Below, piece by piece: positions 3 through 57,488 of a stretch of 64,000 nucleotides of DNA (positions are counted from its first letter, which is position 1; each line of letters opens with the position of its first letter). Below the pieces are notes generated by a model, which saw nothing but the letters and a program-made list of their open reading frames with translations, did no database searches and was not told where the DNA came from. A program made the translations under genes and the position numbers. This stretch comes from Candidatus Melainabacteria bacterium 17Bon1m (GTDB lineage Bacteria > Cyanobacteriota > Vampirovibrionia > Obscuribacterales > Obscuribacteraceae): NCBI GenBank assembly GCA_032128875.1, contig JAVLKG010000005.1, forward strand, positions 320,001-384,000, written 5' to 3'.

Positions 3-476
3 TTTGCTCTTCGCTTTCGCTCTGTTGACGTAGCGAAAGAGCGCGCGTTAGAGCAGTTGACTGGTGGCAAACCTGCGCTCAAGTGCATTGAAGGTTTTCT
101 TGTGGAAGTTGCTCAGTGGACAGAGAAAAACCCTGAGCTTGCCGAAGTTTTGTGGCGTCACGGACCAGTGAGCGCAAAACGATTTCTCAAGGCTGAGATG
201 ATGGATGAGAAAATCACCGGCGCTCAGTCTAAGCGAAGCAACGAGTTCAAAGCGCCGCCAGGACCACCAAATCTGGTGCCGATTGAACTCGTGAAAAGTG
301 CGCAATGCGAAAAATCGCTTCGCTCAGACGTCGCTGCTGAGCGCCTTTCACACTACATAAATTTCATTCTGATTTACGGTCAAATGGAATGGCTGCGCGG
401 CGATCGAAAACAATCGCTCGACAAACATATGTTGGAAGAGCTGAAAATCGTTCTCGAAGGCATCTGCGCGCAATAG
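3..476 (+). CDS. 5'-truncated CDS, probable C-terminal part of a TetR-family regulator
   Basis: The frame of ORF 57..476 stays open to the window edge (FALRFRSVDVAKERALEQL...). The all-helical pattern (..ALKCIEGFLVEVAQWTEKNPELAEVL.., ..LKIVLEGI) resembles TetR ligand domains. The HTH would lie outside the window. Confidence 0.5.
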   Translation, partial: FALRFRSVDVAKERALEQLTGGKPALKCIEGFLVEVAQWTEKNPELAEVLWRHGPVSAKRFLKAEMMDEKITGAQSKRSNEFKAPPGPPNLVPIELVKSAQCEKSLRSDVAAERLSHYINFILIYGQMEWLRGDRKQSLDKHMLEELKIVLEGICAQ

Positions 477-601
477 TAGGCAATTGCAGCGAGCAAGTCT
501 TTGCATCTCAGTAATTTCCCTGTTGTTCTTTGGACACAATGTGGTTGTCTAGAGAGGTGCTGTAATGTTGGCTGCTTTCTCATTTTTTAAGGAGCATCAC
601 C

Positions 602-1117
602 TTGAAGCGAACTTTGGTTCTGATGTCGGCTTTGATTGTTTCTGCTGCATTCGCCTCAATACTTCTGATCGCACCTGCTCTTGCTGAAAAATTAGGTGTG
701 CAAAGTGGAGCGTTTGTTCAGTCAGATTATGAACGGCAAATGGAGATCGGTCGCAGAGCCACTGAGTCTGGAGAGTTTTCCAAGGCGCTGGCAGTGTTTC
801 AGGAAATGAGTCTGCGGCATAATGGTGATTCAAAAGTGATGCTGTCGCTTGCGCGCGTTTACTACCATCTTTCGAAGCGAGATAAAGCGGTGTTGTCAGA
901 AAAAGAAGCCGCGCTGGAATATGCTGAACAGAGTGATAAACAAAAACTAGAACAAGAAATCGCTGATTTGCGGAAGAGCGTCGCAATCAATGAGAAGTCG
1001 AAATCTGAGATTATGACTCGTTTCAGAAAGACCTTGCCAAAGTCTCATCCCTATTGGGAATTTGCGCCACCTGAGAACGAGAAGCAAGAACTCAATATAC
1101 CAAGCAATGCGTCTTGA
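602..1117 (+). CDS. Secreted TPR-like hypothetical protein
   Basis: AAGGAG RBS before TTG, signal peptide (..APALA|EK), TPR-like helices (GEFSKALAVF...LSLARVYYHL). Confidence 0.7.
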   Translation: MKRTLVLMSALIVSAAFASILLIAPALAEKLGVQSGAFVQSDYERQMEIGRRATESGEFSKALAVFQEMSLRHNGDSKVMLSLARVYYHLSKRDKAVLSEKEAALEYAEQSDKQKLEQEIADLRKSVAINEKSKSEIMTRFRKTLPKSHPYWEFAPPENEKQELNIPSNAS

Positions 1118-15714: not shown

Positions 15715-16767
15715 TTGGGCGATTTTTTCATAGTCATGGGGTGCGGGATTCTTGGGCTGATGGCCCACGGAGCCACAACTCGCCCATGGCTGGAGTGGAC
15801 TCTCCGGTTCATTATCGTAATTGTTTTCCTGGGAGAAGGATTGATCGCTGCCGGCGCCCTCGTCGACTCGGGTCAAAATACCTGGCAGGGGGGCATTGCA
15901 ATCGGCACAGCCGTCGCCACAGGCATCTGTTTAGTCTTTTACGGGCGTAAGCTCTACTCGGCTGTTTTTAGTTTCCTAGACAATATTTTTTCCGGAGCGG
16001 CCGCTGTCGCGCTCTACAAGAAAGCGTCCGTGTACGACGTTTTCACCAAAATCCATGTGTTCTTGCCAAATTCCATCCCGCACATGGTCGGGCTATTCAT
16101 CTATATAAGTACATTTGCAACACTGCTGGGCGCGGTCGACCCCGAAAGTCTGGTCGGAGGCCCTGATGGGCTGAAGCTGCCGAGTTTGCCGCTGCCTATT
16201 CCGGTGCCAATCGACACTCTCTTCTCGTACAACGGGCTGGGATTGGTTTTGCTCTCATTTTGCGGCGTCGGTATTTTCGTCAAGCGTGATTTCAAAAGTG
16301 TTTTGGACCGTTTGGGCTGGAAGAAGCCATCGGGCAAGCAAGTCGCTATCGGGCTTGGTTTGGTAGTCTTCAGCTTCCTGTACGACTATCTCTGGTCGCT
16401 CTACACCCACAACACCGGCACCGACATGGCAACGAAGTTGGCGGTGTACAACTCAGGAACCTTCAGCGTTGTCGGTGGTGCCGAAAAGTCCCTTATCCTT
16501 GCCCTGGCAACTGCCATCTTTGCCGGTGTTGGTGAGGAAACATTGATCAGGGGCGCATTGCAGCCAGTGTTTGGAATATTTCCTGCGGCAGTTTTGCATG
16601 GAATTTTGCACGCGCAATTCAACCATGCACCCATACTCATCATTCAAGTCGCGCTCTGGTCTTGCGTGATGGGGCTCGTTCGCAAGTACACCAATACGAC
16701 GACAACTATCATTGGTCACGCCGGATTCAATTTCCTAACCACGTTTTTGTTCGCGTTCAATCCGTAA
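15715..16767 (+). CDS. CPBP (Abi/CAAX) intramembrane metalloprotease with N-terminal TM extension
   Basis: GVGEETLIRG, HGILH and HAGFN motifs. Confidence 0.9.
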   Translation: MGDFFIVMGCGILGLMAHGATTRPWLEWTLRFIIVIVFLGEGLIAAGALVDSGQNTWQGGIAIGTAVATGICLVFYGRKLYSAVFSFLDNIFSGAAAVALYKKASVYDVFTKIHVFLPNSIPHMVGLFIYISTFATLLGAVDPESLVGGPDGLKLPSLPLPIPVPIDTLFSYNGLGLVLLSFCGVGIFVKRDFKSVLDRLGWKKPSGKQVAIGLGLVVFSFLYDYLWSLYTHNTGTDMATKLAVYNSGTFSVVGGAEKSLILALATAIFAGVGEETLIRGALQPVFGIFPAAVLHGILHAQFNHAPILIIQVALWSCVMGLVRKYTNTTTTIIGHAGFNFLTTFLFAFNP

Positions 16768-16814: not shown

Positions 16815-17426
16815 TTAGCTCGGCATTCCTGAGCTTTCGTGAATGATGTTGTCCAGGCTCTCAATGGTTTCGGTCAATGAAAGACTCATAAGCTCTGCGC
16901 GCACTCTCTCATTGTTCTGCACAAGAGATGCAAGGTGCAATGAAGCGGCGGGTGCTGTAGCTCCGAGTTTCAACTTGTGTGCCATATTCATCGAAAGAAG
17001 TTGACACGCCATCTCGACGCCTTCAGAAAGCGGATATTTGTCTCCCACTTCAGTTGCGCTCGGAATTGCATAGAGTTTGTCCGACAAACCAATAGATTGA
17101 AGAATAAAGATCTTGAACCACTCAGGCGGGTCGGCCTGAGCTTCGGCGTGCTCGTAAAGCGCCAGCCAGATTGAAAAACACAGCAGCTCCTTCACTGCTT
17201 CTGCAAATTCTTCTTGTGTCACTTCCGGCAGCGGAACATTCTTATTCGCTTCATTGGCGTGGAATTCTTGCTCGCAGACATTCATGTACTCGCGAAGCAG
17301 ACGAGTACTTTCCATTCCATTGATGGTCGCGAAAAACAAAGCTCTTTCCGCGGACTCCCGCTCCGTCGCCGGTGGTTTTGCTTGACTCGGCACGATTTTT
17401 TGAAAGGCGGGGAGCTGACTGTCCAT
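16815..17426 (-). CDS. Hypothetical protein
   Basis: 203-aa helical ORF, GAGG RBS, fills the intergenic space. Confidence 0.7.
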   Translation of the reverse strand: MDSQLPAFQKIVPSQAKPPATERESAERALFFATINGMESTRLLREYMNVCEQEFHANEANKNVPLPEVTQEEFAEAVKELLCFSIWLALYEHAEAQADPPEWFKIFILQSIGLSDKLYAIPSATEVGDKYPLSEGVEMACQLLSMNMAHKLKLGATAPAASLHLASLVQNNERVRAELMSLSLTETIESLDNIIHESSGMPS

Positions 17427-17765
17427 TTAGTCCTCGTTTCCAGGCTGAACCAATTCTAGCAGCGTGAACTTGCCCAGTACGAAATTTATGGGCTTCGACG
17501 GTTTCCTGCAAGATTTAAGGTTCGACTACGTATTTTTCCCAATGACAAGTTCATCTTTCGTAGGCATTATTATCGTTACGCCGGTTTCTGTACCCACAGC
17601 CGCTGGCCCTCCGGTTTATCTTCCCCGTAAATAAGGTATATAGGTAGAGGCTGTAAAGCCCGCCAGAGTCCATTATTGCTTGGACATATTCGCCGTGGCT
17701 GGTACGACGAATGTAACGAGCTCAACCACTACGTTTGCGTATAAACGACGTTCAGGAGAGTTACT

Positions 17766-19325
17766 ATGGCTGACAGACCCATCGAACCAGGCAAGTACGA
17801 CCCCAAGCAGACACCAGAAAGAAACGCTTCAGTCGATTCGACAGCTATTGTCGACAAATACAAAACTGATGGAGCGGAAGCTGCTTATCAAGCATTGCAG
17901 AAGGAATTAGATCCTCAGCAGCTCGCACAAAGAGGTGTCACCGACCAGCAAAGAACCGCTTATCAAACTAAGTTGGTTGAACAACTTCAAACCGCCGGTG
18001 TATTGCCGGAAATCTCGATAGCCGCTGTCAAAGACAGAGCCGCTAAACCGGCAGATCAAGGTGGCAGCGACCTTCAAACAAACAATCAATACGACATCAA
18101 CAAGATCAGAGCCGCACGTGATGCGGCCACAAATCCTGTCGACAAAGCGCTCTACACCGCATTCTCCGATAAGTACAACGATCTGCGCAATGAAAACCGC
18201 AGTGGTCGTGCTTATGCGCCGATTAACGATGCCGCATTGACTCGTCACATGGACAAGACGAACGCTGCAGCAAGAGAAACTGCTCAGAATGAACAGTTCA
18301 AGAAAGATATCTCCGTTCTGGCAACAAACCCGAAAGTGTTCGATGCAATCGACAAAGCCGGAACTGAAACTACCAACCGCGCTGGAGTAGTTCCAGAGAA
18401 GACTGACGGCAAGATAACCGAAGAGAATATCGCCGCCTTCGACAAGAAGTGGAACGATCCAAACGAGACAGAGCGCAAGAAATTCCGCGATGGTTTCGGA
18501 ACGCAGGAGCAACAGGACCAAGTCGACAGAGCTGTTAAGGCATTGAAGGGTGGTCTTGAACAACCCAACCTGCTGAAAAACAACATGGTCGAGGGACGTT
18601 GGAATCCGCTAAACGAAAATGGCATAACTAGAGACACTCTTACGGCCGGATTGGGCGGACCTGAAGCTGTTGCTAAATACAAGCAGCAAGAAAATACACG
18701 TCCTGACGGCACAGTCAGACCTGAAGTTGCTGCTGCTCAGAATTTTGCCGACAGCAAGCTGAACCGCGGTGAAGGACCGTGGCACGTTGCCAACCAAATG
18801 ATTAAGGGGCAAGAGGGTCAGTTCCAAGATCCAGCCAAAGCACAACGCGACCTCACCAAGGCACTTCAAAATTCCTTTACGGATCGCCAGGGTGCAGAAC
18901 AGCTAGCTAATGGCGGACGTGACAAGGTTCGCGAAGAAATTCGCAAGAGCGGCAACACCGAACTTCTTAACTGGTTCGACAAGCGTTATCCAAAACCGGA
19001 AGGACCTGAACAACCTGTTGCTAAGCCTGAACCTACAGCAGCGGCAGATTTCAGCAGCACCAAACTTAAGGACAAAAACGACGGACCAAGAGCTATTGCA
19101 GGTCGCATGACTCAAGGGCAGGAGCAGTTCTTCGCTGATCCAGCCAAGGCTACTAGAGATCTCGCCAAAGCCATCGGCGTAGAATCCGGTATCCACAATT
19201 CTAAGCAAGGCGCCGAACAAGTCACCAAGGAGAATTATGACAATGTGATCAAGAGCATCCAAGCAACTAACAATGCTGAGTTGCTCGCATGGTTCCAAAA
19301 ACGCTATCCAAAACCGAAAGCATAG
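17766..19325 (+). CDS. Hypothetical protein with two C-terminal ~95-aa repeats
   Basis: AGGAG RBS; repeats end NTELLNWFDKRYPK and NAELLAWFQKRYPK; paralogue downstream; own terminator. Confidence 0.85.
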   Translation: MADRPIEPGKYDPKQTPERNASVDSTAIVDKYKTDGAEAAYQALQKELDPQQLAQRGVTDQQRTAYQTKLVEQLQTAGVLPEISIAAVKDRAAKPADQGGSDLQTNNQYDINKIRAARDAATNPVDKALYTAFSDKYNDLRNENRSGRAYAPINDAALTRHMDKTNAAARETAQNEQFKKDISVLATNPKVFDAIDKAGTETTNRAGVVPEKTDGKITEENIAAFDKKWNDPNETERKKFRDGFGTQEQQDQVDRAVKALKGGLEQPNLLKNNMVEGRWNPLNENGITRDTLTAGLGGPEAVAKYKQQENTRPDGTVRPEVAAAQNFADSKLNRGEGPWHVANQMIKGQEGQFQDPAKAQRDLTKALQNSFTDRQGAEQLANGGRDKVREEIRKSGNTELLNWFDKRYPKPEGPEQPVAKPEPTAAADFSSTKLKDKNDGPRAIAGRMTQGQEQFFADPAKATRDLAKAIGVESGIHNSKQGAEQVTKENYDNVIKSIQATNNAELLAWFQKRYPKPKA

Positions 19326-19348
19326 GATTAGCGCATAAATAAAGTCTC

Positions 19349-19382
19349 AAGAGGAAGGTTCGCGCCTTCCTCTTTTGTTTTG
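19349..19382 (+). terminator. Intrinsic terminator
   Basis: AAGAGGAAGG-ttcgcg-CCTTCCTCTT followed by TTGTTTTT. Confidence 0.85.
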
Positions 19383-19692
19383 GAAGTTTCCATTCTTGCT
19401 TTGCAGATTTCTGTTTTTGTTTTTCGAGTTTTCTCCCAAGCTCTTTCACCTGTGTTTGGCCCAGTCGCGCCCCGCGTACTTTCCGCGCTGTCGGTCACGA
19501 AGCCGTCACGTTGGTGCGGAATAATCAAAAACATCCGAAGGGCAACGAAAGCCCGCTTTCCCCACAAGTAAAAAGAATCCTCGCCCTCCCCGGGCTGCGC
19601 TAAAAACTCTGCATTCCAGCCAGATGCTTTCAAAAGGAAAGATCTGAGGCAGGTCGCCGCGCGTCCAGCCGCTTTTCTTAGGAGAATTGACC

Positions 19693-21252
19693 ATGGCCGA
19701 AACAGCACAACTCTACGACTCCGCTAAAGGTCCGACAAAGGAAGCCGCGGCGGATGCAGCCACTGTCAGAACGGTGCTGGAAAAGGAAGGCTCGGATGCG
19801 GCAGTAACGAGGTTGCGAAGTGAGGTTGAGTCTGTCCCTGAGCGCGATCGTCAGGCGTACAACACGGCTCTCTTCAAGAACCTGACAGGTGATAGCAATA
19901 GGCTGCCAAACATTCTGCCGGACATGGCGATTGCATTTGGTATGCAGAATTCTGGTTCTTTCATGGAGCAAAACAAATGGAAATGGAATAGCGATGAGCG
20001 CATCGTCAACCCTGACAAACTTACTTCTGCGGCGTCCAAAGAAACGAATCCAATCTATCAGGAACTTTATCGGGAGATGTATAACAAATTCCGCACTATC
20101 AAGGCGGAAAACGGCGCTCATATTGATCCACTGGACTCGTACACTCAAGGCTCTCGCATTCTTAGAGATTATGTTGTGCCCGAAGGTCAGCTGAAGCAGC
20201 AGCTTGCCACTGATGCTGTGCGCGCTGACAATCGCCGACAATTTGGTGTCCTTGCCTCCAATCCTAAGTTGTTCGGTGCCATCGCTAGTGGTGGTGAGAT
20301 AACCCAAGACAGTCTCAAAACATTTAGTGAGAAATGGAATCAAACCGGCACCAGTGGTGCGGATTTCCGTAAGCAGTATGCTTCTACGCCAGAACAGCAG
20401 AGACAGATTGGGCAAACTCTCGACAATCTGAAATACGCATTTGACGATGACAGACACAAGGACAACAAGCCAGGCTCGGTCCTTCAAGACAACAAAGCTG
20501 GTTTTATAGCTAGACACGTCAACGACTACTTCCATGACTATGGCAAGATGACGCAAGAGAGTCTGTTAAATGGACTTGGTTACAAGTCTACGGAAGAAGC
20601 GAAACTTCGCCTGCCATCAGATGTTGGTGGTAAGCCGCTTTCTGATGTTGTTTCACTGAGAAGTTACGACAACACCAAACTGCGCAACCGACAAGATGGT
20701 CCAATGGACCTTGCTCGCAGAATGCTCTCCGGTCAGGAGAAACACTTTAAGGACGCACCGGGCGGTGCAGAACAGGCTGTGAAAGACTTGACCAATGCGC
20801 TTGCTCCGGCTGCAGGCACCTTCGTCGACAAAGCCGTCAATCAGGTTTCTCCTGAGAATCGCGACAAGGTAATTCAGAACATTGCTGCAACTGGCAACGA
20901 TAGACTGCGCGACTGGTTTGTCAGTCGTTATCCTGCCGACATGTCTGCTGCCGCAGCTGCTTCAACCGCTGACGCAGGACCGCTGGATAACTCATCGTCC
21001 AAAGTCGTGTCGAGACAAGGCTCAGATGCAGTCGCAACAAACATGCTGAAAGACGCTGGTCTAGGTCATTCAGAAATGAAGGCGCTCAGCAATGTCTTGT
21101 ACAAAGATCTGGGCATCAACTGGAATTCAGTGCACGCAGGCACGCCGCTAGTGACTGAAGAAAACCTCGAAACTGTCCGCGAAAAGATTGCCGCGAAAAA
21201 CAACGACAAACTCATTCAATGGTTTGACAGCAAATATCCGAAGAGAAACTAG
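19693..21252 (+). CDS. Paralogue of 17766-19325
   Basis: AGGAG RBS before ATG 19693; shared blocks (VLAxNPKxFxAI, ITxxxxxxFxxKWN); repeats end WFVSRYP and WFDSKYPK. Confidence 0.85.
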   Translation: MAETAQLYDSAKGPTKEAAADAATVRTVLEKEGSDAAVTRLRSEVESVPERDRQAYNTALFKNLTGDSNRLPNILPDMAIAFGMQNSGSFMEQNKWKWNSDERIVNPDKLTSAASKETNPIYQELYREMYNKFRTIKAENGAHIDPLDSYTQGSRILRDYVVPEGQLKQQLATDAVRADNRRQFGVLASNPKLFGAIASGGEITQDSLKTFSEKWNQTGTSGADFRKQYASTPEQQRQIGQTLDNLKYAFDDDRHKDNKPGSVLQDNKAGFIARHVNDYFHDYGKMTQESLLNGLGYKSTEEAKLRLPSDVGGKPLSDVVSLRSYDNTKLRNRQDGPMDLARRMLSGQEKHFKDAPGGAEQAVKDLTNALAPAAGTFVDKAVNQVSPENRDKVIQNIAATGNDRLRDWFVSRYPADMSAAAAASTADAGPLDNSSSKVVSRQGSDAVATNMLKDAGLGHSEMKALSNVLYKDLGINWNSVHAGTPLVTEENLETVREKIAAKNNDKLIQWFDSKYPKRN

Positions 21253-21279
21253 CTTTTTCACTGATGACGACGCAGGAAT

Positions 21280-21318
21280 GCCCGATTTAACTTCCTTCTG
21301 GAGCTGAGTCGGGCTTTT
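21280..21318. terminator. Hairpin terminator between convergent genes
   Basis: GCCCGATTTA..CTTCC-ttct-GGAG..TGAGTCGGGC then TTTT. Confidence 0.65.
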
Positions 21319-21320
21319 CG

Positions 21321-24300
21321 CTAGGGTGTTAGAGTGCCACTGCTGCCGCCATCTTCGGAATTTTTCTCTGTTTCCTTTTGCGTTGGAGTGCCGTTGTCGG
21401 CATCTTTATTATTTTCGGGCTTGCCTGTGCCTCCAGTGACGCCCTTCAGCCCTTGCAAGATTGACAGCGTTACTTCCCTCGGCTTTCCTACGAGTTTTCT
21501 TTCTTCCATGAGAGCAAGCTCGCGTGCGACTTCTTCGTCAGTGCGTTCCGGCTCTAGGATTGCAACTATGTCTCGGTAATAGAGCGTTTCTTTCTCCATC
21601 AGAGCTTCGGCGAGTTTTTGAACTTTGTCCTTATGTTGTCCTAGCAACTTGTTAACGCTTTCCTTGCAGTCATTGATAATTTGCATGGTTGCGAGTTCCA
21701 ACTGACGCTCTGTTTCTGGAGAAGGTCCGGCGGCATCCTCATGTCCAAACGCCACATTGGTATTGAAAGTGAAGTCTTTTGCCATGCCCCACTCCCGGAC
21801 CATTGCTCGTGCGCAGGAAGCTACATTCCTCAAATCCGAACTGACTCCTGAGGAAGTTTCCTTCAAGAACATGTTCTCTGCCGCCCAGCCGCCGAGTGCA
21901 ATTTCAATGCGCACCATCAAATCATGTCTGTCTCGATGGTTGCGATCTTCCTTACCGACATACCAGACGTATCCGAGTGCATAGCCACTTGGAACGACAG
22001 TAACGACCTGAATTCTGTCGCGCTTGTTGCGGAAATAGGCAGCTACAGCGTGTCCCGCTTCGTGTATTGCGGTAGCGCTCAATTCCTCCATCAGAATATG
22101 ACGGCTGTAGGACATACCGAAACTTTGCCTTTGAATAGCCTGAATTAGGTCTATCATCGTAATTTCTTTTCGCCCTTCACGAACGGCGATCAGACCTGCT
22201 TCATTGACGATGTTCGCAATATCTGCGCCTGAGTTCCATACAGTCATGCGAGCGATTTCGCGCAAATCGATTTTGCATTCCATCTTGAGCTTCTTGATGT
22301 AGTGCGTAAACATCGCCTCGCGCCCTTCAAGGTTCGGCATCGAGATGTTGATACGCCTGTCAAACCGACCTGGACGTAACAGTGCGGGGTCCAGCAAAGA
22401 AGCGTTGTTAGTGGCGCCTATAGTGAGTACTTTGTGTTTGCCGAAGCCATCAAGTTCGACGAGGAACTGGTTTAATGTCTGGTTTTGCTCTTGCTTGCCG
22501 CCGCCGCCGTAGTCACGGCCTCTATGACCAGCAATACCATCGATTTCGTCAATAAACACAATCGCAGGCTTGCCGCTGCGCCGTGCCTGTTCGTATACAG
22601 CTCTGACGCGTGCGGCGCCTAATCCTACCCAAACTTGTGCAAAATCGCTGCCGCTGAGTGCGTAGAATGGTACACCTGCTTCGTTTGCAATAGCTTTGGC
22701 AAGCATAGTCTTGCCGGTCCCCGATGGTCCTACTAGGAGAACACCCTTCGGTGCCTTGAGACCAACTTCTTGCACCAGCTCCATGTTTTTGATCAGGGCA
22801 ACTACTTCAGCAGCTTCTGCTTTTGCTTCTTCCATGCCTTTAACGTCGTCGAGTTTTACATCGACATCGGGCAGTCTGGCCATGTTAATGCCAGTCGTGT
22901 TCATCTTATGGCCGGCAGTTGCAGACAGCTTGGTAATTGCTTCTGCGAGGTCAGCTTCGATGAATTTCTTACGATTGTTTCTTACCGCAAGAATAGCCGC
23001 TTCGTTGACTGCGGCAGCAACGTCAGCACCGGCAAAGTTTACGCTCTGCTTCGAAAGTTCTTCTAGATCAAATTTACCTTCGTTCTTGATTTTGCTCATA
23101 TAGAGCTCGAACATTTTCTTGCGTGCATCGGAATCAGGGAGTCCGATGTAGATCTTTCGATCAAATCTGCCAGCGCGATAAAACGCAGGGTCCAAATTTT
23201 GTTCTTGGTTAGTCGCGCCGATTGTGAGAATATTGCTGCGACTAAAACCATCCAACTGAACGAGTATTTCGTTTAGTTCGCTTGTGCGGTTGTTTCCGAC
23301 ATCTGTCATAGTTCCTGCAATCGCATCTATTTCATCAATGAAAACGATTGCTGCCGGGCTCTTTCTTGCTTGCGTGTACAGCGCTCTGAGTCTCGCTGCG
23401 CCTTCTCCATCAAACATGCTTTTGAAATAAGATGCAGAGATTCCATAGAAGGGCACACCTGCTTCGTTTGCAATTGCTTTGGCCATCAAGGTTTTGCCAA
23501 CGCCAGGCGGTCCGATTAATAGAATGCCTCGCGGGACTTTCGCACCCATTTCACGCAGTTCCGAACCTTGGCGCAAGAATGCAATGACTTCAGAAACATC
23601 TTGCTTTGCGTCGTCGATTCCAATTACATGATCCAGTTTGACTGTCGGATCCGGATTTGGAATGACAATGCCTGAATCGACTAGAACACGATCATTGCCC
23701 ATAGAAACGCGGTCCAGAGCTTGCTCTAATATGTCTGTAGTGACACGGTTCGGACCGCCCGGACGCGTAGATACCAAAGCTGCTTCATTGACTATTTGGT
23801 AGATGTCCGCAGGAGAAAAGCCCTGAGTCAGACTCGCAATATGTTCAACATTTACTTCGGGGTCGTGCGAAACTCTTTCTAGATAGTATTTGAAAATCTT
23901 GACGCGCTCTTCCGGGTTGGGAATTTGAAAGTAAATGCGTCTGTCCATGCGGCCTGCACGAGTAAGGCCCGGATCGAGACCGCCATCAAGATTGGTGGCA
24001 CCAATGACTAACAAACGCGAAGCGTGAAACCCATCCATCTGCGTTAGCAGCGTATTGAGAGTCATGTTCATGTCAGACTGCCCGCCGAAGCCTCTGTCTT
24101 GCCTCCGGCGTGTTGCCATGGAATCAATTTCGTCTATGAACAATATCGCGCGATCATGGCGTTTCAGCTTTGCAAACAAGGTCTTTAACTTGAGTACTCC
24201 CAAACCAAAGATCAAGCCACTGATGCCGCCACCTTCTACAACATAGAATGGTGTGCCCACCTCGTTGGCAATGGCTCGGGCGAAGAGCGTTTTACCAACA

Positions 24301-24740
24301 CCCGGAGCACCGACGAAAAGCATTCCTTTTGGTAATTCAGCCCCTGAAGCAGAATACTTTTCTGGATTCTGAAGCATGTCTATTACTTCTTTGATTTCTT
24401 GCTTGGCTTGCTCATTGCCAATCAATTCATCCAACGTCTTCGGAGCCTTAGGATTAATCCTGGGCTTTTCGAACATGAATGGAAGTACCCGCTCCCAGAT
24501 AGGTTTTGGTGCCTTAGAGTCAGCTCGTGGCGGAAGCGGAAAGATGATTGACAGCAGTATGTACCACTGAATCAAAATCATTATGGCGCCGAACAGGGCG
24601 GCAGCAAAGGCAGACGTTACCGAATACTTGAGTAAAGCAGGAAAGGAGGCAAATGGGTTCCAGAATTGCGCTGTGCAGAGCAATAGCACCATCCACAGAG
24701 CCAAAACCGTCCATCTTGCCCAATTTTTCATAACTTTCAA
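21321..24740 (-). CDS. FtsH-like ATP-dependent zinc metalloprotease with three tandem AAA+ modules
   Basis: Two N-terminal TMs; Walker A GAPGVGKT, GPPGVGKT, GPSGTGKT; three FIDEID; SRH RAGRMDR, RAGRFDR, RPGRFDR; M41 HEAGH, GGWAAE and GVSSD. Confidence 0.92.
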   Translation of the reverse strand: MKVMKNWARWTVLALWMVLLLCTAQFWNPFASFPALLKYSVTSAFAAALFGAIMILIQWYILLSIIFPLPPRADSKAPKPIWERVLPFMFEKPRINPKAPKTLDELIGNEQAKQEIKEVIDMLQNPEKYSASGAELPKGMLFVGAPGVGKTLFARAIANEVGTPFYVVEGGGISGLIFGLGVLKLKTLFAKLKRHDRAILFIDEIDSMATRRRQDRGFGGQSDMNMTLNTLLTQMDGFHASRLLVIGATNLDGGLDPGLTRAGRMDRRIYFQIPNPEERVKIFKYYLERVSHDPEVNVEHIASLTQGFSPADIYQIVNEAALVSTRPGGPNRVTTDILEQALDRVSMGNDRVLVDSGIVIPNPDPTVKLDHVIGIDDAKQDVSEVIAFLRQGSELREMGAKVPRGILLIGPPGVGKTLMAKAIANEAGVPFYGISASYFKSMFDGEGAARLRALYTQARKSPAAIVFIDEIDAIAGTMTDVGNNRTSELNEILVQLDGFSRSNILTIGATNQEQNLDPAFYRAGRFDRKIYIGLPDSDARKKMFELYMSKIKNEGKFDLEELSKQSVNFAGADVAAAVNEAAILAVRNNRKKFIEADLAEAITKLSATAGHKMNTTGINMARLPDVDVKLDDVKGMEEAKAEAAEVVALIKNMELVQEVGLKAPKGVLLVGPSGTGKTMLAKAIANEAGVPFYALSGSDFAQVWVGLGAARVRAVYEQARRSGKPAIVFIDEIDGIAGHRGRDYGGGGKQEQNQTLNQFLVELDGFGKHKVLTIGATNNASLLDPALLRPGRFDRRINISMPNLEGREAMFTHYIKKLKMECKIDLREIARMTVWNSGADIANIVNEAGLIAVREGRKEITMIDLIQAIQRQSFGMSYSRHILMEELSATAIHEAGHAVAAYFRNKRDRIQVVTVVPSGYALGYVWYVGKEDRNHRDRHDLMVRIEIALGGWAAENMFLKETSSGVSSDLRNVASCARAMVREWGMAKDFTFNTNVAFGHEDAAGPSPETERQLELATMQIINDCKESVNKLLGQHKDKVQKLAEALMEKETLYYRDIVAILEPERTDEEVARELALMEERKLVGKPREVTLSILQGLKGVTGGTGKPENNKDADNGTPTQKETEKNSEDGGSSGTLTP

Positions 24741-24905
24741 CTTCCGTAATTATCAGTTGTTGCCCCAGTGTGGGAAATCTTCCACCTTGCCGCCGTTCGG
24801 ATCAGTAGCGCAGCTGTTCTTTCCAATGTCAGTCAATAACCGCACCCTGCGGTATCCGTCGACGAGCACCTCTTCAGCGATGACAACGTCCTGTTTGTCT
24901 AGCTG

Positions 24906-25031
24906 TCAGGGATAGCCCGGGACTGCAATGTCTGATATGCCAGTCTTTTCAGGTTCGCCTTTCAAGTCCATGCCGTTAAGCAGGCAGCTGACGCCCAGCG
25001 CAATGAATAACGTGACAAAAAAAGTCTTCAT
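24906..25031 (-). CDS. Small membrane/secreted ORF (41 aa; frame stays open past its UGA to 24753)
   Basis: Manual translation MKTFFVTLFIALGVSCLLNGMDLKGEPEKTGISDIAVPGYP*. N-terminus resembles that of the adjacent thioredoxin. AAGG RBS is weak. Confidence 0.5.
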   Translation of the reverse strand: MKTFFVTLFIALGVSCLLNGMDLKGEPEKTGISDIAVPGYP

Positions 25032-25233
25032 ACCTTGATGCTAAACCGGCTTGCTGTCGCTACTTAACTAATATTCCCTCTACCTACCAGCATTCTATAG
25101 ATTTTTGAGAGATGCTGCCAATTCCTTTTGCCTGTTGGCTTTCTAGGGTAAACCCGCCATGCCAGACATGCTGAGATTTCACGGGTTGGTTCGCTGGACA
25201 TGAGCACAAGGCAAGGAATTCAATGGTTCCTCC

Positions 25234-25731
25234 TTAGTCTGCCGCGTTTCCAGTTCCGGGTTTTTGACTTTCGAGATATGGCTTAACCATTGCAACTACT
25301 TGCGTCTTCGGCATGGCTCCAGTAGTGGAATATTCGCATTTACCTTCCTTGAAGACCATAAATACGGGAATCGAGGAAATTTGGTACTTCTGGGCTAAGT
25401 GGGGCGCACGTAAAACATCCACCCGTGCCACTTTTAGAGAACCTTGGTACTCCGTTGCCACTTCAGCCAAAATAGGCTCCATTTTCTTGCATGGTCCGCA
25501 AGTATCGGCGTAAAAGTCCACAAGGACCGGCGTCTGGCTGTCTATTACTTCGCTTTCGAAATTCGATTCGTCAACGGAAGCCATACTATTAAGTGCTTCT
25601 TCGGACGCTGTCTGCTGAGCTGCCTCTGGTGTTTGCTGTGGAGCACTTGATGTCGCGTCCACTTGCTGTGACCCGTTCCAAATACTGCCCACGATGAGAG
25701 CGATTACAAAGATGATGAATGCTTCTTTCAC
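25234..25731 (-). CDS. Membrane-anchored/secreted thioredoxin-family protein
   Basis: N-terminal hydrophobic segment, Q/A-rich linker, VLVDFYADTCGPCK, cis-Pro SIP. Confidence 0.9.
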   Translation of the reverse strand: MKEAFIIFVIALIVGSIWNGSQQVDATSSAPQQTPEAAQQTASEEALNSMASVDESNFESEVIDSQTPVLVDFYADTCGPCKKMEPILAEVATEYQGSLKVARVDVLRAPHLAQKYQISSIPVFMVFKEGKCEYSTTGAMPKTQVVAMVKPYLESQKPGTGNAAD

Positions 25732-25950: not shown

Positions 25951-26475
25951 TTATTTGCCGCGCTCAGGAATCAAAACGGTGTCGATGACGTGAACTACGC
26001 CGTTGGTGCAATCTTTGTCAGCTTGCGTGACGAGAGCGCCGTCAACAACTTGTGTGCCGTCTTTGTTGTCGAGCATCACGGATTCGCCTTCCAAGGTTAC
26101 GAGCGAACGGCGGCTTGCCAGATCGCTAGCAGAGTACTTCTTGGGAAGAACGTGATATTTGAGCACTGTTGCCAACTTCTTGTTATCAGCCATGAGGGCT
26201 TCTCTGTCGGCTTTAGGAATTTTGTTGAAAGCTGCATCGCTTGGAGCGAAGAGGGTGTAACTACCTCTTTGTCCGAGAGTCTTCATCAAACCGGTCTTGA
26301 CCAGCGCATGGTGGAGTGTCGACAACTCCTTGTTGCAGGCGGTCGAGCTCGAAACGCTCGGCTTGCCGCAGGCTTTCTTGTGGTGTCTTTTCGCATCAGC
26401 TGTAAGCTGAGACGAGCTAATCACCGCCAATGTCATTGCTACGACAACTGCGGCTACTTTCTTCGATTGCATCAC
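25951..26475 (-). CDS. Secreted fasciclin (FAS1) domain protein
   Basis: Signal peptide; YTLFAPSDAAF, LKYHV and NGVVHVIDTVL motifs. Confidence 0.93.
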   Translation of the reverse strand: MMQSKKVAAVVVAMTLAVISSSQLTADAKRHHKKACGKPSVSSSTACNKELSTLHHALVKTGLMKTLGQRGSYTLFAPSDAAFNKIPKADREALMADNKKLATVLKYHVLPKKYSASDLASRRSLVTLEGESVMLDNKDGTQVVDGALVTQADKDCTNGVVHVIDTVLIPERGK

Positions 26476-52839: not shown

Positions 52840-54342
52840 ATGCTCATAACTGGCGGTCAAACTATTTTTAGTGCTTGTCCGCAATCGGAGACTCTAATGT
52901 GCAGACAACACCTCATAAATACGCCTCGTGAAGGTTCGATTCAAGGTGTATCTAGACCCGGCAATTTCCTAGCCAGTGTTTTTCTTTCGGTAATTGCTGT
53001 CGTGAGCCTTTCTTCTTGCGGCACCAAGAGCGATTCTGCGGATGCATCGCTTTCCAATCATTCAGTCCCGTCCGGTCCGAAATTAATAAAAGTTAGTGAG
53101 AAAGTTGCACAGCAAATAGATATCCAGCATGAGGTCATTGAGAAACGGTCGCTGACTATTCCCATGCATGTGACTGGAAAAATCGAGCCCGATCTCGGCA
53201 AGGAAGTTGATGTCACCAGCCGTATTAGCGGCCGCGTGAAAGAGATTCGCGTTGCACCCGGTCAAGAGGTCAAACGCGGGCAAATTATGGCTGTTCTCGA
53301 CAGCCAAGAAATTTCCGACCTGCAAGCTGAACTCATTGAAGCAAAAGCCAAGTTGAATATCGCCGAGGCTCACGAAGAGCGAGAGCGGATGATTTACGCT
53401 GAATTGTTGGTTCGTCCCAAGTCGCTAATCGAGGCTCAAACTCAATTTGATGCCATCCAAGTCCAGAAGGATTTAGCCGAGACTGAATTTCACCGTCAGG
53501 AAGGTTTGTACAAAGAAAAGATTTCCGCTCAAAAGGACTACCTGGCAGCCAAAGCTGCGTCGGCGACCGCAAATGCCAACTACGAGCAAGCCCTCATCGC
53601 TTACGAGCGCGAAAAGAATTTGTTCAAGAACAAGGCAATGCTCAGAAAAGACTTGCAGTTGGCAGAAGCAGAAACTGCCAAGGAGAGACAGCACTACAAC
53701 ACGCTTAAGCAAAGACTTGATTTCTTGGGCGCCGATGTCAGCATCCTTTCAAATGTATTGAGTACTGGGCATATCAGTGGACTTGTCCGTATCGTAGCTC
53801 CGGTCTCTGGAATCGTAAGCCACCATGATCTGGCAGTAGGAGAGCTTGTCCATCCAGACAAGAGCATTTTCAAAGTCACCGATTTATCCTCGGTCGCTGT
53901 GAAGGCGGACCTTCCGGAAGTAGATATCTCGCGTGTCAAACTTGGCGGCAAAGTGAAGGTCAACGTGCCGAGCTACCCGAACGAACAGTTCTACGCAACG
54001 GTCAGTTTTATTAGTGAGCACGTTAATCCAGAGACCCGCACAGTATCGGTGCGTGCGCGCTTGCCTAATACAGCGCGCAAGTTCAAATTGCAGATGTTCG
54101 CAGAAATTGACCTGGAAGGGGCGGCACGAGATTTGCTCGCCTGTCCGAAATCAGCCATTCAAGAACTCGATGGCAAGCCGGTAGTCTTTGTCAAAAGGGC
54201 GGAAGGCTATGAAGAAAGACATATCAAAACCGGTGTCGATACAGAAAAGTATGTCGAGGTTCTCTCAGGATTGGAGCAAGGTGAAGACGTGGTCACGCAG
54301 GGAAGTTTGATGCTTCGCACGGAGCTTACCTATAAGCACTAG
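52840..54342 (+). CDS. czcB: RND efflux periplasmic adaptor (CzcB-like), lipoprotein
   Basis: LSSC lipobox, SRISGRV..GQEVKRG, APVSG, VNPETRT, GLEQGEDVVTQG. True start probably downstream of 52840. Confidence 0.88.
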   Translation: MLITGGQTIFSACPQSETLMCRQHLINTPREGSIQGVSRPGNFLASVFLSVIAVVSLSSCGTKSDSADASLSNHSVPSGPKLIKVSEKVAQQIDIQHEVIEKRSLTIPMHVTGKIEPDLGKEVDVTSRISGRVKEIRVAPGQEVKRGQIMAVLDSQEISDLQAELIEAKAKLNIAEAHEERERMIYAELLVRPKSLIEAQTQFDAIQVQKDLAETEFHRQEGLYKEKISAQKDYLAAKAASATANANYEQALIAYEREKNLFKNKAMLRKDLQLAEAETAKERQHYNTLKQRLDFLGADVSILSNVLSTGHISGLVRIVAPVSGIVSHHDLAVGELVHPDKSIFKVTDLSSVAVKADLPEVDISRVKLGGKVKVNVPSYPNEQFYATVSFISEHVNPETRTVSVRARLPNTARKFKLQMFAEIDLEGAARDLLACPKSAIQELDGKPVVFVKRAEGYEERHIKTGVDTEKYVEVLSGLEQGEDVVTQGSLMLRTELTYKH

Positions 54343-54392: not shown

Positions 54393-57300
54393 ATGATCGA
54401 CAAGATCATTACCTTTGCTATGCGGGAGCGACTCCTGACCATTGCTGCATTCGTTGGCATGGCCATGTTTGGAGCCTGGTGTACGCTGACTTTGCCTGTT
54501 GATTCGTTTCCGGACGTGAGTAACGTTCAGGTGCAAATCATCTCCGATTGCGAAACGCTGGCAACAGAAGAAGTCGAGAGCTTGATTACGTTTCCGATTG
54601 AAAACGGGCTGAATGGCTTGCCCAAGGTAAATAAGATCCGCTCCAACTCGAGTTTTGGCCTCTCGGTTGTTACTGTAATTTTTGACGACGACACTGATGT
54701 GTATTGGGCTCGCAATCTCGTTCAGCAAAGACTGAGCCAGATCGAACTGCCGGCATGGGCGCCTACGCCCCACCTGGGTCCGGTTGTATCTACTTTCAGT
54801 AACGTATTCAATTACTATCTTGTCTCCGATCGTCATGACATGATCGAGTTGCGCACCATCCAAGATTGGCAAGTGGCACGACGTTTGAAGTCTGTTCAGG
54901 GCGTTGGCAACGTTGTCAGCTACGGCGGCTTCGTCAAACAATATCAAGTGCTCGTCGATCCTAACGTGCTGAAAGGCTACGGGGTGACGATTCCCGACGT
55001 AAAAAATGCGCTCACCAATAACAATATAAATGCGGGTGGAAACTTCATTGAGCGCGGCGGCGAGGAAATTATTATTCGCGGGCTGGGGCGAATCGAAAAC
55101 GAAAACGACATAAAGAACGTTGTTTTGAAAACGGTTGGCGGTACCCCGGTAAAAGTTGGACAAGTGGCTCAGGTTGTTGTCGGACCAGCTTTCAGACGCG
55201 GTTCGGCTTCAATGAATGGCAAGGGTGAGGTTGTCACTGGCATGGTGCTCACTCGCAAGGGGGTTAACACAAAAGACGTTGTAGAGAAGGTTCGTCACCG
55301 CATCGAAGAAATCCGCAAAGAATTGCCGGCCGGCGTCACACTGCATGCGTATTACGATCAAACCGAGCTTGTAGAGAAGACGATTGAAACAGTAAAAGAG
55401 ATTTTGATGTTCTCTGGTGGTTTGGTTATCGTCATTCTGACCGCCATCATGTTGCACATTCCCAGCGGTTTGATCGTTGCTGTCATCATTCCTCTGTCAC
55501 TGCTTTTCTCCTTCATTCTTATGAAGTACACGGGACTCACGGCTAACTTGATGACCCTGGGAGCGGTTGATTTCGGTGTTATTGTCGACGCTGGGGTGGT
55601 CATGGTGGAAAACATATTCCGCCAACTTTCTATTGCCAATGAGCATAAGAAAGAAGGCGAGAAGATCAACCACTATCAAATAATCATCACCGCAGCGCGC
55701 GAGGTCGGGCGACCGATTGCATTTGCAGTCATTATTATTGTTTCTGTCTATCTGCCCCTTTTCACGCTTGAGGGAGTCGAGGGGAGGATGTTCCACCCCC
55801 TGGCACTCACTTTTATTTATGCCATCTTGGGCGCCTTGATCGCCTCTTTGACGGTCATTCCAATTCTTTGCTATTGGTTCTTGAGGGGAAATATCAAAGA
55901 AAAACACAATCCTGTGGTGGAGAAAATTCACCAGTGGCACGAGCCTTTGCTTGCAAAATCAATGGATCATCCATATTTCACTGTCCTGATTGCCGTCGGT
56001 ATTCTTATCGCCAGCTTTGCTGCAATACCTTTTTTAGGCTCCGAGTTCATTCCTACTCTGGATGAAGGTTCGATTCTGTTGCGTACCAAGCTATCGCCTA
56101 GCGTCGCGCACTCTGAGTCTATGCGCGTTGCCGGTGAAGTCGAGGAGATGATCAAAAAATTTCCTGAAGTTACCGTTGTCGTGTCTCGTATTGGTCGCTC
56201 CGGCATGGGCTCCGACCTTGAAGGCGTGGACAATGCGGATGTCTACATCGGTTTGAAACCGAAGAAAGAGTGGACTTCTGCGCATGATAAAGAAGAACTT
56301 GTCAATCTGATGTCGAAAGAGGTGGAAGGTATCCCAGGTCTTATCCACTCATTCTCTCAGCCGATTGGCGACATGATCGATGACCTTGTCGCCGGTATTA
56401 AAGCCGACCTTGGGATCAAAATCTTTGGCGAAGACTTGAAGGTTCTTGATAAAACCGCAAAGCAAGTTGAGAACATTGTGTCGAAGGTGCCTGGTGCGGC
56501 GGATATGCAGCGCGAGCATATCTTGGGCTTGCCGCAGATGACCATCAAGATGAAACGCGACGTAATCGCGCGGTATGGGCTGAATGTTGCTGACATTCAA
56601 GAAATTATTGAAACCGCGGTTGCAGGAAAAGTTGTCACCGATGTTGTTGAAGACAACAGGCGATTCGGGTTGCTAATTCGTTTGCCCAGCCAATTCCGTG
56701 ACACAGAAAACGATATCGAAAGTATTCTCATCGACACGCCGGATGGAGCCAAAGTGCCTCTTAAGCAATTGGCCGACATAAAGTTGCCGCGCGGAACCGT
56801 GATGATTAACCGCGAGGATGGTCAGAGAAGAACTGCTGTCTTAGCCAATGTGCGGGGCCGCGACTTGGGTTCTTTCGTTGAAGAAGCTCAACAGAGAATC
56901 AATCAGGAGCTTCAGTTGCCGAAGGGCTATCGCATTGTCTGGGGTGGACAATTTGAAAACCAACAGCGCGCCATGACTCGATTGGCGGTTGTTGTGCCGG
57001 TCGTCCTTCTGCTTATCTTCATTCTACTTTTTGCATCTTTCAATTCGCTTAAGAACGCCGCGCTCATTATGATGAATGTTCCGTTCGCTCTAATCGGCGG
57101 AATTCTAGCCTTGCTTATTTCGAGGCAAACGCTCTCCGTACCTGCGATTATCGGCTTTATCTCACTGTTTGGTGTGGCTGTGCAGAACGGGGTCATTCTT
57201 GTCAGCTATATCATGCAGCTGCAAAATCGAGGATATAAAGTTCGAGAGGCTGCGATGGAAGGAGTCACCGTGCGGCTGCGCCCGGTGCTTATGACCGCGC

Positions 57301-57488
57301 TCGTCGCCATTATGGGATTCATGCCGCTCATTCTTTCCCATGGAACCGGCGCCGAGGTGCAGCGTCCGCTCGCTACCGTCGTGGTCGGCGGGTTGGTTTC
57401 AGCGACTCTTCTGACTTTGTTCGTGCTGCCGACTGTTTACACACTCATCAATAAAGACAGTGATGAAGAGGAACAGCCGAGTGGCTAG
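54393..57488 (+). CDS. czcA: Heavy-metal RND efflux permease (CzcA type), copy 1
   Basis: LPVDSFPDVSNVQV, AVDFGVIVDAGVVMVEN, RLRPVLMT, GAEVQRPLA. Confidence 0.95.
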   Translation: MIDKIITFAMRERLLTIAAFVGMAMFGAWCTLTLPVDSFPDVSNVQVQIISDCETLATEEVESLITFPIENGLNGLPKVNKIRSNSSFGLSVVTVIFDDDTDVYWARNLVQQRLSQIELPAWAPTPHLGPVVSTFSNVFNYYLVSDRHDMIELRTIQDWQVARRLKSVQGVGNVVSYGGFVKQYQVLVDPNVLKGYGVTIPDVKNALTNNNINAGGNFIERGGEEIIIRGLGRIENENDIKNVVLKTVGGTPVKVGQVAQVVVGPAFRRGSASMNGKGEVVTGMVLTRKGVNTKDVVEKVRHRIEEIRKELPAGVTLHAYYDQTELVEKTIETVKEILMFSGGLVIVILTAIMLHIPSGLIVAVIIPLSLLFSFILMKYTGLTANLMTLGAVDFGVIVDAGVVMVENIFRQLSIANEHKKEGEKINHYQIIITAAREVGRPIAFAVIIIVSVYLPLFTLEGVEGRMFHPLALTFIYAILGALIASLTVIPILCYWFLRGNIKEKHNPVVEKIHQWHEPLLAKSMDHPYFTVLIAVGILIASFAAIPFLGSEFIPTLDEGSILLRTKLSPSVAHSESMRVAGEVEEMIKKFPEVTVVVSRIGRSGMGSDLEGVDNADVYIGLKPKKEWTSAHDKEELVNLMSKEVEGIPGLIHSFSQPIGDMIDDLVAGIKADLGIKIFGEDLKVLDKTAKQVENIVSKVPGAADMQREHILGLPQMTIKMKRDVIARYGLNVADIQEIIETAVAGKVVTDVVEDNRRFGLLIRLPSQFRDTENDIESILIDTPDGAKVPLKQLADIKLPRGTVMINREDGQRRTAVLANVRGRDLGSFVEEAQQRINQELQLPKGYRIVWGGQFENQQRAMTRLAVVVPVVLLLIFILLFASFNSLKNAALIMMNVPFALIGGILALLISRQTLSVPAIIGFISLFGVAVQNGVILVSYIMQLQNRGYKVREAAMEGVTVRLRPVLMTALVAIMGFMPLILSHGTGAEVQRPLATVVVGGLVSATLLTLFVLPTVYTLINKDSDEEEQPSG

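Follow-up and report, generated by a model that had tools for sequence, protein, structure and literature searches.

FtsH is the membrane AAA protease found universally, a weak unfoldase driven by a single motor ring. How would such an enzyme be assembled if every chain brought three motors? This question is raised by a minus-strand gene in a 64,000-nucleotide (nt) stretch of the genome of Candidatus Melainabacteria bacterium 17Bon1m (assembly GCA_032128875.1, contig JAVLKG010000005.1, positions 320,001 to 384,000), the whole of which we call the window and within which all nucleotide positions below are counted. The open reading frame (ORF) at 21321..24740 holds 1139 codons without a stop when read from its TTG, and Pfam finds in the translation three AAA stretches (PF00004, E 8.4e-111), three AAA_lid_3 domains and one Peptidase_M41 domain at amino acids (aa) 884-1060 (E 3.6e-40; PF01434 at 138 bits against a cut-off of 29.9). 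The NCBIfam model TIGR01241 (FtsH_fam) reaches 995.9 bits as a sum over three stretches (cut-off 600), and TIGR01243 (CDC48) matches one stretch, aa 98-606 or AAA1-AAA2, at 528 bits, under its cut-off of 802.65. Together with hydropathy, these matches bear out the layout given in the original prediction, which had been made from the letters of the sequence and proposed two transmembrane helices followed by AAA1, AAA2, AAA3 and M41; the product is predicted from its domains to be a membrane-anchored ATP-dependent zinc metalloprotease of the FtsH lineage. We conclude that this triple-AAA FtsH protease is a real, conserved and undescribed design, and we infer for it a mechanism in which the three motors stack.

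The motifs of all three motors and of the protease lie where they had been predicted. Walker A (GxxGxGKT) is found at aa 144, 410 and 671 (24311-24288, 23513-23490 and 22730-22707), Walker B (..FIDEID) at aa 199, 465 and 727, sensor-1 ATN in every module, and the arginine pairs of the second region of homology (SRH) at R261/R264, R522/R525 and R789/R792. Pore loop 1 reads LIFG in AAA1, MFDG in AAA2 and VWVG in AAA3, and the protease carries HEAGH at aa 893 (22064-22050) and GVSSD at aa 965-969. Pairwise identity among the modules is 37, 41 and 50%, and they are therefore diverged copies. Only 97 residues precede AAA1, and they hold both hydrophobic helices of what hydropathy predicts to be a two-helix N-terminal membrane anchor; the first helix peaks at 1.85 when averaged over 17 residues and stays below 1.6 over 19, and AlphaFold2 (AF2) places a helix at aa 2-27 with a low predicted local distance difference score (pLDDT). 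The inter-helix loop NPFASFPALLKY, predicted to be very short, has about 10 residues and is nearly invariant among homologues; with just these residues between the hydrophobic segments, a periplasmic domain is absent. The predicted length of 1139 aa agrees with the ORF and needs a small correction, since orthologues begin with MKNWARW at the fourth codon, an ATG at 24731 preceded by GGAAG 9 nt upstream; the true start is probably this ATG, which would give a protein of 1136 aa, as in the homologue P0002 (1136 aa). Besides this gene, the genome encodes six single-AAA M41 proteins, four of which have 70-95 residues between the hydrophobic segments; the triple-AAA enzyme is therefore additional to, and not, the housekeeping FtsH.

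A word-indexed protein search returned 7999 matches; in the best 120 clusters, lengths span 993-1206 aa and identities 61-99%. Those that bear a name are called 'AAA family ATPase' (Candidatus Obscuribacterales/Melainabacteria) or 'ATP-dependent metalloprotease FtsH', annotations that at present mask the triple-AAA architecture. Twelve loci of named Obscuribacterales/Melainabacteria metagenome-assembled genomes (MAGs) carry the gene with conserved upstream synteny. Surveying 151 sampled genomes of the class plus the window's own genome, we found matches extending beyond single-AAA length in 28 of 30 genomes of one family (f1) and in both genomes of a second (f2), the two families belonging to the order Obscuribacterales, which NCBI places under Candidatus Melainabacteria. 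The two f1 genomes without a match have completeness of 87-90%, and in one of the f2 genomes the match is split into two parts at contig ends. Other families of the class match only aa ~620-1070, in frames of ~640 aa, and none of 400 other genomes of the phylum, with two candidates scored per genome, matches at E<=1e-125. In this sampling, the gene appears conserved across the order and confined to it. According to the labels of sequencing runs, Obscuribacterales are abundant in water systems and aquifers. One genome of the family holds another long frame (G100:C35:12386-14449; 1115 aa) with 36% identity to aa 371-1061, possibly a distinct additional multi-AAA M41 gene.

Three motors in one frame could in principle also arise by mis-assembly, by a sequencing error fusing neighbouring FtsH genes, or in a decaying pseudogene. 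Twenty-five of the 28 f1 matches are whole frames without stops; the others, one with a single TAG (G067), one split in two frames (G027) and one multiply broken (G088, 7 stops), mean that 3 of the 30 matching genomes hold broken or split copies, and the copy at a further locus (L019) is also interrupted. Set against these, the frame in the window is open over its whole length, and single contigs (39, 22 and 32 kb) of the runs X2, X3 and X6, which belong to two studies, run gap-free and unjoined through 20800-25400, each spanning the module junctions. The complete domain order recurs in at least 120 protein clusters at the identities given above, the catalytic residues are all invariant or nearly so, and the modules are too diverged for the assembly duplication that the original prediction had already argued against. 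For practical purposes, the artefact explanation is refuted.

Residue conservation was read from an alignment of 118 rows, made up of the window protein and 117 homologues, the 120 listed minus three that fall short of 1090 aa. In each module, the Walker A Lys, Walker B Asp, sensor-1 Asn, SRH Asp and both SRH Arg are present in 118 of 118 rows, and the Walker B Glu in 118, 117 and 118 (AAA1, AAA2 and AAA3); the AAA2 Walker A Thr is Thr in 115 and Ser in 3. The M41 site (H893, E894, H897, E955 and D969) is likewise complete in all 118, one of its acidic residues presumably serving as the third zinc ligand. The pore-loop W704 of AAA3 is invariant (118/118), the corresponding position of AAA2 is aromatic (F/W/Y) in 101 of 118, and AAA1 shows L-I/F-M/F/Y-G with no fixed aromatic at the canonical position; the DGF motif following pore loop 2 is kept in all three modules. 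Median identity to the window protein is 69% for AAA1, 66% for AAA2, 73% for AAA3 and 53% for M41; the junctions reach 46 and 57%, the tail 32%. For comparison, a housekeeping FtsH of the same family shows 94% in its AAA and 80% in its M41 domain (23 genomes), and in shared genomes the overall identity of the triple-AAA gene is 60-66% versus 74-90% for housekeeping FtsH. All three ATPase modules appear to be under purifying selection and look catalytically competent; the motifs hold across the whole alignment, in line with the prediction that every module is intact, and in none of the aligned homologues do two modules degenerate.

Two loci, L013 and L014, depart from this pattern along the gene. 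Compared with L009-L012, they are closer to the window over aa 61-240 (88-95% versus 83-91%) and farther from it over aa 241-1139 (36-86% versus 56-100%), with 36-51% in the AAA3 lid and M41; the whole triple-AAA protein is 67-68% identical and the flanking proteins are 92-100% identical. We considered a mosaic gene and set this aside, because the flanks are only ~80% identical at the DNA level and the contrast with them is partly mere weaker constraint. The discordance within the gene remains, and suggests old recombination or a burst of change at the protease end.

To place the modules, 89 AAA modules were put in a quick IQ-TREE phylogeny (LG+G4) with Shimodaira-Hasegawa-like approximate likelihood ratio (SH-aLRT) supports. 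The three Obscuribacterales modules fall into three separate clades (SH-aLRT 99-100), which makes the triplication older than the diversity sampled in the order; the expectation that the modules are old, clearly diverged copies is thereby borne out. The three clades group (95) with other multi-AAA chains, with AAA-M41 proteins of ~500 aa and with one paralogue from the window's own genome (L005), and other multi-AAA lineages appear in the tree as independent duplications within canonical FtsH. The same genome also encodes two FtsH-like genes of ~770 aa with weak M41 matches (L006/L007; G000 contigs C18:24222-24752 and C15:29024-29554; E 6e-21 and 5e-16), whose AAA modules sit on a long shared branch as a divergent paralogue pair.

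Tandem motors are not confined to this family. In an exhaustive HMMER search over 1.84 billion representatives, the triple-AAA family forms one 50% cluster (P0033), and domains were counted in the other 149 best representatives with hidden Markov models from the triple-AAA family, a rough classification in which some weak 'modules' are fragments. Writing A for an AAA module, we counted 53 A-M41, 39 A-A-M41, 9 A-A-A-M41 and 2 A-A-A-A-M41 representatives, 3 with A-M41-A-M41, and one each with A-M41-A and M41-A-M41; M41-less chains had two (15 representatives), three (13), four (7), five (4) or six modules (2). On this sequence-based count, tandem-AAA FtsH-like chains are common among metagenomic proteins and the design is not unique to the window's genome. 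In the ESM Atlas, we found only single-AAA FtsH-like clusters and one plant cluster of ~1030 aa. All modules are intact in 4 of the 9 three-module clusters and 25 of the 39 two-module clusters. Where a module has decayed, it is nearly always the M41-distal one: among the 39 A-A-M41 clusters the distal module has decayed in 12 (o+) and the proximal in 1 (+o), and the patterns among the 9 A-A-A-M41 clusters are o++ (2) and oo+ (3). A MAG of Thermoleophilaceae is the source of one of the three-module clusters (P0126/P0276, 'AAA family ATPase').

By hydropathy, most tandem-AAA M41 chains have an N-terminal anchor, and their AAA-AAA junctions have a median of 16 residues over 63 junctions, compared with 13-14 in the triple-AAA protein. 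Three of them, close relatives from a sister lineage with two (P0141), three (P0125) and four modules (P0123), share a homologous N-terminal anchor and M41; their M41-proximal AAA modules are 65-68% identical and form one clade (99), and their M41 domains are 55-62% identical. Tandem-AAA proteins of other lineages (for example P0122, P0124, P0125, P0126/P0276, P0123, P0129, P0131 and P0141) likewise have AAA(n)-M41 with an anchor, at 36-46% identity to the triple-AAA protein; they differ in being independent duplications, some of them inside canonical FtsH with a loop of periplasmic size, and no member is characterised in the literature searched. As separate observations, P0128, P0130 and P0203 have the whole AAA-M41 unit doubled, with the second AAA beginning ~10 residues past the first M41 in P0130 and P0203, and P0134 and P0148 (2055-2124 aa) are M41-less with six AAA-like modules in a row, most of them with decayed ATPase motifs; the latter two resemble classical-clade AAA rings in which one chain supplies all six modules.

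How the three modules would be arranged was judged from a single-chain AF2 model built on 125 aligned rows (mean pLDDT 83.1, predicted template modelling score (pTM) 0.69), with the inter-module geometry read through structural alignments. AAA3-M41 (625..1063) superposes on apo-FtsH (3kds_F; Z 32.9, root-mean-square deviation (rmsd) 3.1, 421 of 426 residues) and on YME1 (6az0; Z 30.6, rmsd 3.0, 431 of 439). AAA1-AAA2 (101..605) matches Cdc48 D1-D2 (8u9z_E; Z 27.4, rmsd 4.2, 469 aligned), Rix7 (7t0v_F; Z 26.6, rmsd 4.6, 493 aligned) and SPATA5 (8rhn_K; Z 21.7, rmsd 4.9, 497 aligned). AAA2-AAA3 (364..874) in turn matches p97 (9ox9_A; Z 24.2, rmsd 4.8, 485 of 539), VAT (5vc7_A; Z 21.4, rmsd 3.9, 495 of 544) and NVL (9bji_A; Z 23.6, rmsd 5.2, 499 aligned). 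Foldseek template modelling scores are 0.68-0.72 when normalised on D1-D2-only p97/Cdc48 chains, and the p97 D1-D2 sequence aligns to aa 380-857 in a single unbroken alignment. In PMC7226402, D1 and D2 of Cdc48 are each described as forming a ring. Both AAA-AAA junctions of the model are in D1-D2 geometry, and the modelled chain is therefore a stacking column, predicted to run D1-like, D2-like, D2-like again and protease, as would suit the protomer of a stacked assembly. The M41 domain (aa 878-1078) modelled as four copies scores 0.59, against 0.36 for the best of three controls, and passes a mark that 20 of 30 proteins solved as same-chain pairs reached, compared with 1 of 23 single-chain structures; at least 84% of contacts are common to the runs, the partner pLDDT is at least 78, and the interface unites two different faces, head to tail, as a ring requires. 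M41 is thus predicted to self-associate head to tail, although the alignment used and the four copies differ from the calibration, and FtsH hexamers have been solved, so that the pass may reflect structures already known to the predictor.

The original prediction had offered two assemblies, six chains in three stacked rings or two chains in one planar ring. We favour the former and consider it probable that six chains would place three stacked motor rings on an M41 ring; both AF2 junctions, their shortness, the series of two-, three- and four-module relatives and the predicted M41 pairing speak for it, and the planar ring is the less likely of the two. The AAA motor was, on the tree, triplicated before the Obscuribacterales radiation, and all three copies have kept their catalytic motifs; under the stacked arrangement, six chains would build a four-tier tower of membrane hairpins, AAA1 ring, AAA2 ring, AAA3 ring and M41 ring, totalling 18 ATPase and 6 protease sites. 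Each chain would descend the tower as a p97/VAT protomer does from D1 to D2, and substrate would enter at the membrane-proximal AAA1 ring and be drawn through three coaxial pores before being cut in the M41 chamber. AAA3 may be the feeding motor because of its invariant Trp pore loop and its FtsH-like joint to M41; AAA2, which keeps the canonical aromatic pore loop, and AAA1, whose loop is aliphatic/Met, could add grip, processivity or unfolding force beyond that of the single ring of ordinary FtsH. This threading path and the functional gain are what we infer from the model and the conserved motifs. That nature has here a membrane-bound AAA+ machine with more than two coaxial motor rings made from one kind of chain, with 18 ATPase and 6 protease sites and fixed throughout a bacterial order, is a proposition we regard as evenly balanced.

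Several observations weigh against stacking. The geometry comes from one AF2 chain and may have been imposed by training on p97, NSF and ClpB; pLDDT at the first junction is only 52; and a second AF2 model (aa 92-880, from a 12-row alignment of the loci) reached pLDDT 71.2 and pTM 0.37, an inter-module geometry too uncertain to serve as independent support, for which it was not used. M41 evolves faster than the other folded parts (median 53%, the AAA modules having 66-73%), the canonical aromatic pore residue is missing from AAA1, which may therefore not thread, and the three RNA-labelled runs hold the gene as contigs of 22-39 kb, which may be DNA. The M41-M41 interface columns are no better conserved than others (top-residue frequency 0.62 versus 0.68; 9182 of 10000 random sets as high, surface and core not being separated). 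Chains of two, three or six modules would also suit a planar ring, and M41-less six-module chains exist. This last point leads to the planar pseudo-hexamer, in which two chains, each resembling three subunits covalently joined, would set six AAA modules side by side to give six ATPase sites, with four membrane helices and two M41 domains below. Six is divisible by three, chains with 1, 2, 3 or 6 modules predominate in the count, the trans-acting arginines kept in all three modules need a neighbour, each module has its own conserved pore loop like the distinct subunits of a hetero-hexamer, and the unremarkable M41 interface fits as well. We nevertheless consider such a ring improbable: neither AF2 junction is side by side, since both superpose on D1-D2 (469-495 residues, rmsd 3.9-4.8), and four-module P0123, a relative with the shared anchor and M41, cannot fit into a six-module ring, whereas any number of modules can stack. 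The second AAA of P0130, ~10 residues after M41, fits a chain continuing down the axis, head-to-tail M41 self-association is predicted with the reservation given above, and two isolated M41 domains would leave their active sites unsequestered, judging from the known chamber of FtsH. A wide structural search (50 rows) gave no two-module dynein or midasin match and only single-module axonemal rows, an absence that proves nothing.

In a further alternative, only AAA3-M41 would form a working FtsH-like hexamer and AAA1 and AAA2 would be ATP-driven accessories (gate, adaptor, membrane extractor or regulator, none of which requires closed coaxial threading rings), or the protein would co-assemble with FtsH paralogues. 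AAA3 is the best conserved module, the closest to FtsH and the one with the invariant Trp, AAA1 has no fixed aromatic pore residue, M41-distal modules decay in other lineages, the genome has six other M41 genes, and FtsH hetero-hexamers are known in cyanobacteria. We think this rather unlikely, because no module has decayed in the triple-AAA family, and the arginine fingers and DGF, near-invariant in all three, are sensible only in a ring of like neighbours; the AAA2 pore residue is aromatic in most rows, and the AF2 model sets all modules on one axis.

The original prediction did not recognise this architecture as a described one, which agrees with our searches. Nothing on an FtsH with more than one AAA module was found in the full-text literature searched, a scope outside which subscription journals and supplements lie, and the best 60 of 242 matches in a PDB sequence search were FtsH chains of 453-644 aa and type II ATPases, with no tandem-AAA M41 chain. 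One source describes FtsH with one AAA module (10.1101/2020.02.28.969766). Canonical FtsH (MEROPS M41; T. maritima 3kds, T. thermophilus 2dhr and E. coli 7vhp; mitochondrial YME1 6az0 and AFG3L2 6nyy) shares with the triple-AAA protein the N-terminal anchor, a classical-clade AAA with SRH (sensor-1 Asn and two Arg) directly before M41, the aromatic-hydrophobic-Gly pore loop, and an M41 with HExxH and an acidic third ligand; these chains match aa ~625-1065 in sequence, with E down to 3e-104. They differ in having one AAA per chain instead of three and a periplasmic domain instead of the ~10-residue loop, and housekeeping FtsH is the slower-evolving of the two. Type II ATPases (p97/Cdc48, VAT, NVL/Rix7, SPATA5 (55LCC) and NSF/Sec18) share tandem classical AAA modules with a short linker and, on the AF2 model only, D1-D2 protomer geometry at both junctions; they are two-tiered, carry a soluble adaptor N-domain and have no protease covalently attached, whereas the triple-AAA protein would have three tiers, a membrane hairpin and an M41 protease, with no N-terminal adaptor domain.

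The chloroplast Ycf2-FtsHi motor (8xkv, 8xks and 8xqw) is likewise an AAA machine that derives from FtsH in the cyanobacterial/plastid lineage and has a remodelled composition, and an FtsHi chain matches AAA3-M41 of our model at Z 27.0; it is a hetero-hexamer of separate single-AAA chains, most of them protease-inactive, and has no tandem repeat. In ClpAP and ClpCP, stacked AAA rings feed a self-compartmentalised protease, the principle proposed here, but these belong to another AAA+ clade, are soluble, have two rings and keep the protease on a separate chain. In dynein and midasin, six AAA modules of one chain close one ring, whereas the triple-AAA protein has three, of the classical clade. 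To our knowledge, the well-studied stacked AAA machines (p97, NSF, ClpA/B/C and Pex1/6) all have two rings, and we know of no characterised AAA machine that stacks three rings from one chain. The order has kept a three-motor version intact by selection through its whole history, which would mark a proteostasis function specific to Obscuribacterales on top of the normal FtsH paralogue set. If the stacked assembly is true, an FtsH-type series with one, two, three and four motor tiers would let one ask what each ring buys in grip, force or processivity, and the two- and four-module relatives on the same chassis would be a natural experiment on ring stacking and division of labour.

The coordinates of the protease and of its neighbours are collected in Table 1. 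Upstream, the order is histidine kinase (opposite strand), thioredoxin, fasciclin protein, anchored thioredoxin and protease; the kinase is kept in 12 of 12 related loci, and a distinct anchored-thioredoxin orthologue lies directly upstream of the protease in 10 of 12. This thioredoxin/fasciclin synteny is a conserved link of position. The upstream same-strand genes are separated by gaps of 184, 220 and 494 nt, and a strong terminator-like hairpin (25928-25901) follows the fasciclin gene, which together argue against a single operon; a promoter scan found four promoter-like sites, not above shuffles (mean 5.5).

Table 1. Positions of the triple-AAA protease, its parts and the adjoining genes within the window.
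Feature	Position	Strand	Remarks
Whole ORF, triple-AAA FtsH-like protease	21321..24740	-	stop codon 21321-21323
Hydrophobic helix 1, predicted first half of membrane hairpin, aa 7-28	24657..24722	-	hydropathy
Hydrophobic helix 2, aa 39-71	24528..24626	-	hydropathy
AAA1, aa 98-352	23685..24449	-	K150, D203/E204, N250, R261/R264
Junction AAA1-AAA2, aa 353-365, 13 residues	23646..23684	-	AF2 pLDDT 52 at aa 351-360
AAA2, aa 366-612	22905..23645	-	K416, D469/E470, N511, R522/R525
Junction AAA2-AAA3, aa 613-626, 14 residues	22863..22904	-	conservation, alignment
AAA3, aa 627-872, joined to M41 as in FtsH	22125..22862	-	K677, D731/E732, N778, R789/R792
Peptidase M41 domain, aa 880-1075	21516..22103	-	H893-E-x-x-H897, E955, D969
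C-terminal tail, aa 1076-1139	21324..21515	-	poorly conserved, median identity 32%
Anchored thioredoxin, 165 aa, CGPC, N-terminal hydrophobic anchor	25234..25731	-	adjoins protease upstream
Fasciclin-domain protein, 174 aa, signal-like N-terminus	25951..26475	-	10/12 related loci
Thioredoxin, 107 aa	26659..26982	-	85-100% identical, 12/12 related loci
Two paralogous proteins, 519/521 aa	17766-19325 and 19687-21252	+	no Pfam family, convergent to protease

Within the protein, residues A609, G610, K612, N614, G617 and D625 are nearly invariant at or near the AAA2-AAA3 junction, and pLDDT of the tail falls from ~77 at aa 1071-1080 to below 50 from aa 1102 on. The original prediction was right that two repeat proteins and thioredoxins lie beside the gene, and its suggestion that the repeat proteins are partners of the protease is not supported: they are convergent to it and lack conserved linkage, being found in 6 of 12 related loci (two loci end too early to tell). 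The two paralogues are 26% identical to each other (E 4e-35), and each ends twice in a '..L..WF..[RK]YP' motif; they show 29-95% identity between close relatives and are absent from more distant loci. Beyond them, 15715-16767 (+) encodes a multi-pass membrane protein of 350 aa whose C-terminal part is an Rce1-like CAAX protease domain (E 1.5e-8); its gene is conserved near the locus in 6 of 12 related loci. No Rfam family matches the window, and Tandem Repeats Finder reports no repeat in 17000-25500. Elsewhere the window holds ordinary chromosomal genes, with a primase, glycosyltransferases, two-component systems and two AcrB pumps; the pumps are adjacent, full-length AcrB-type members of the resistance-nodulation-division (RND) family of 1031 and 1033 aa (54393-57488 and 57556-60657, +), preceded by a HlyD-type adaptor gene at 52840-54342.

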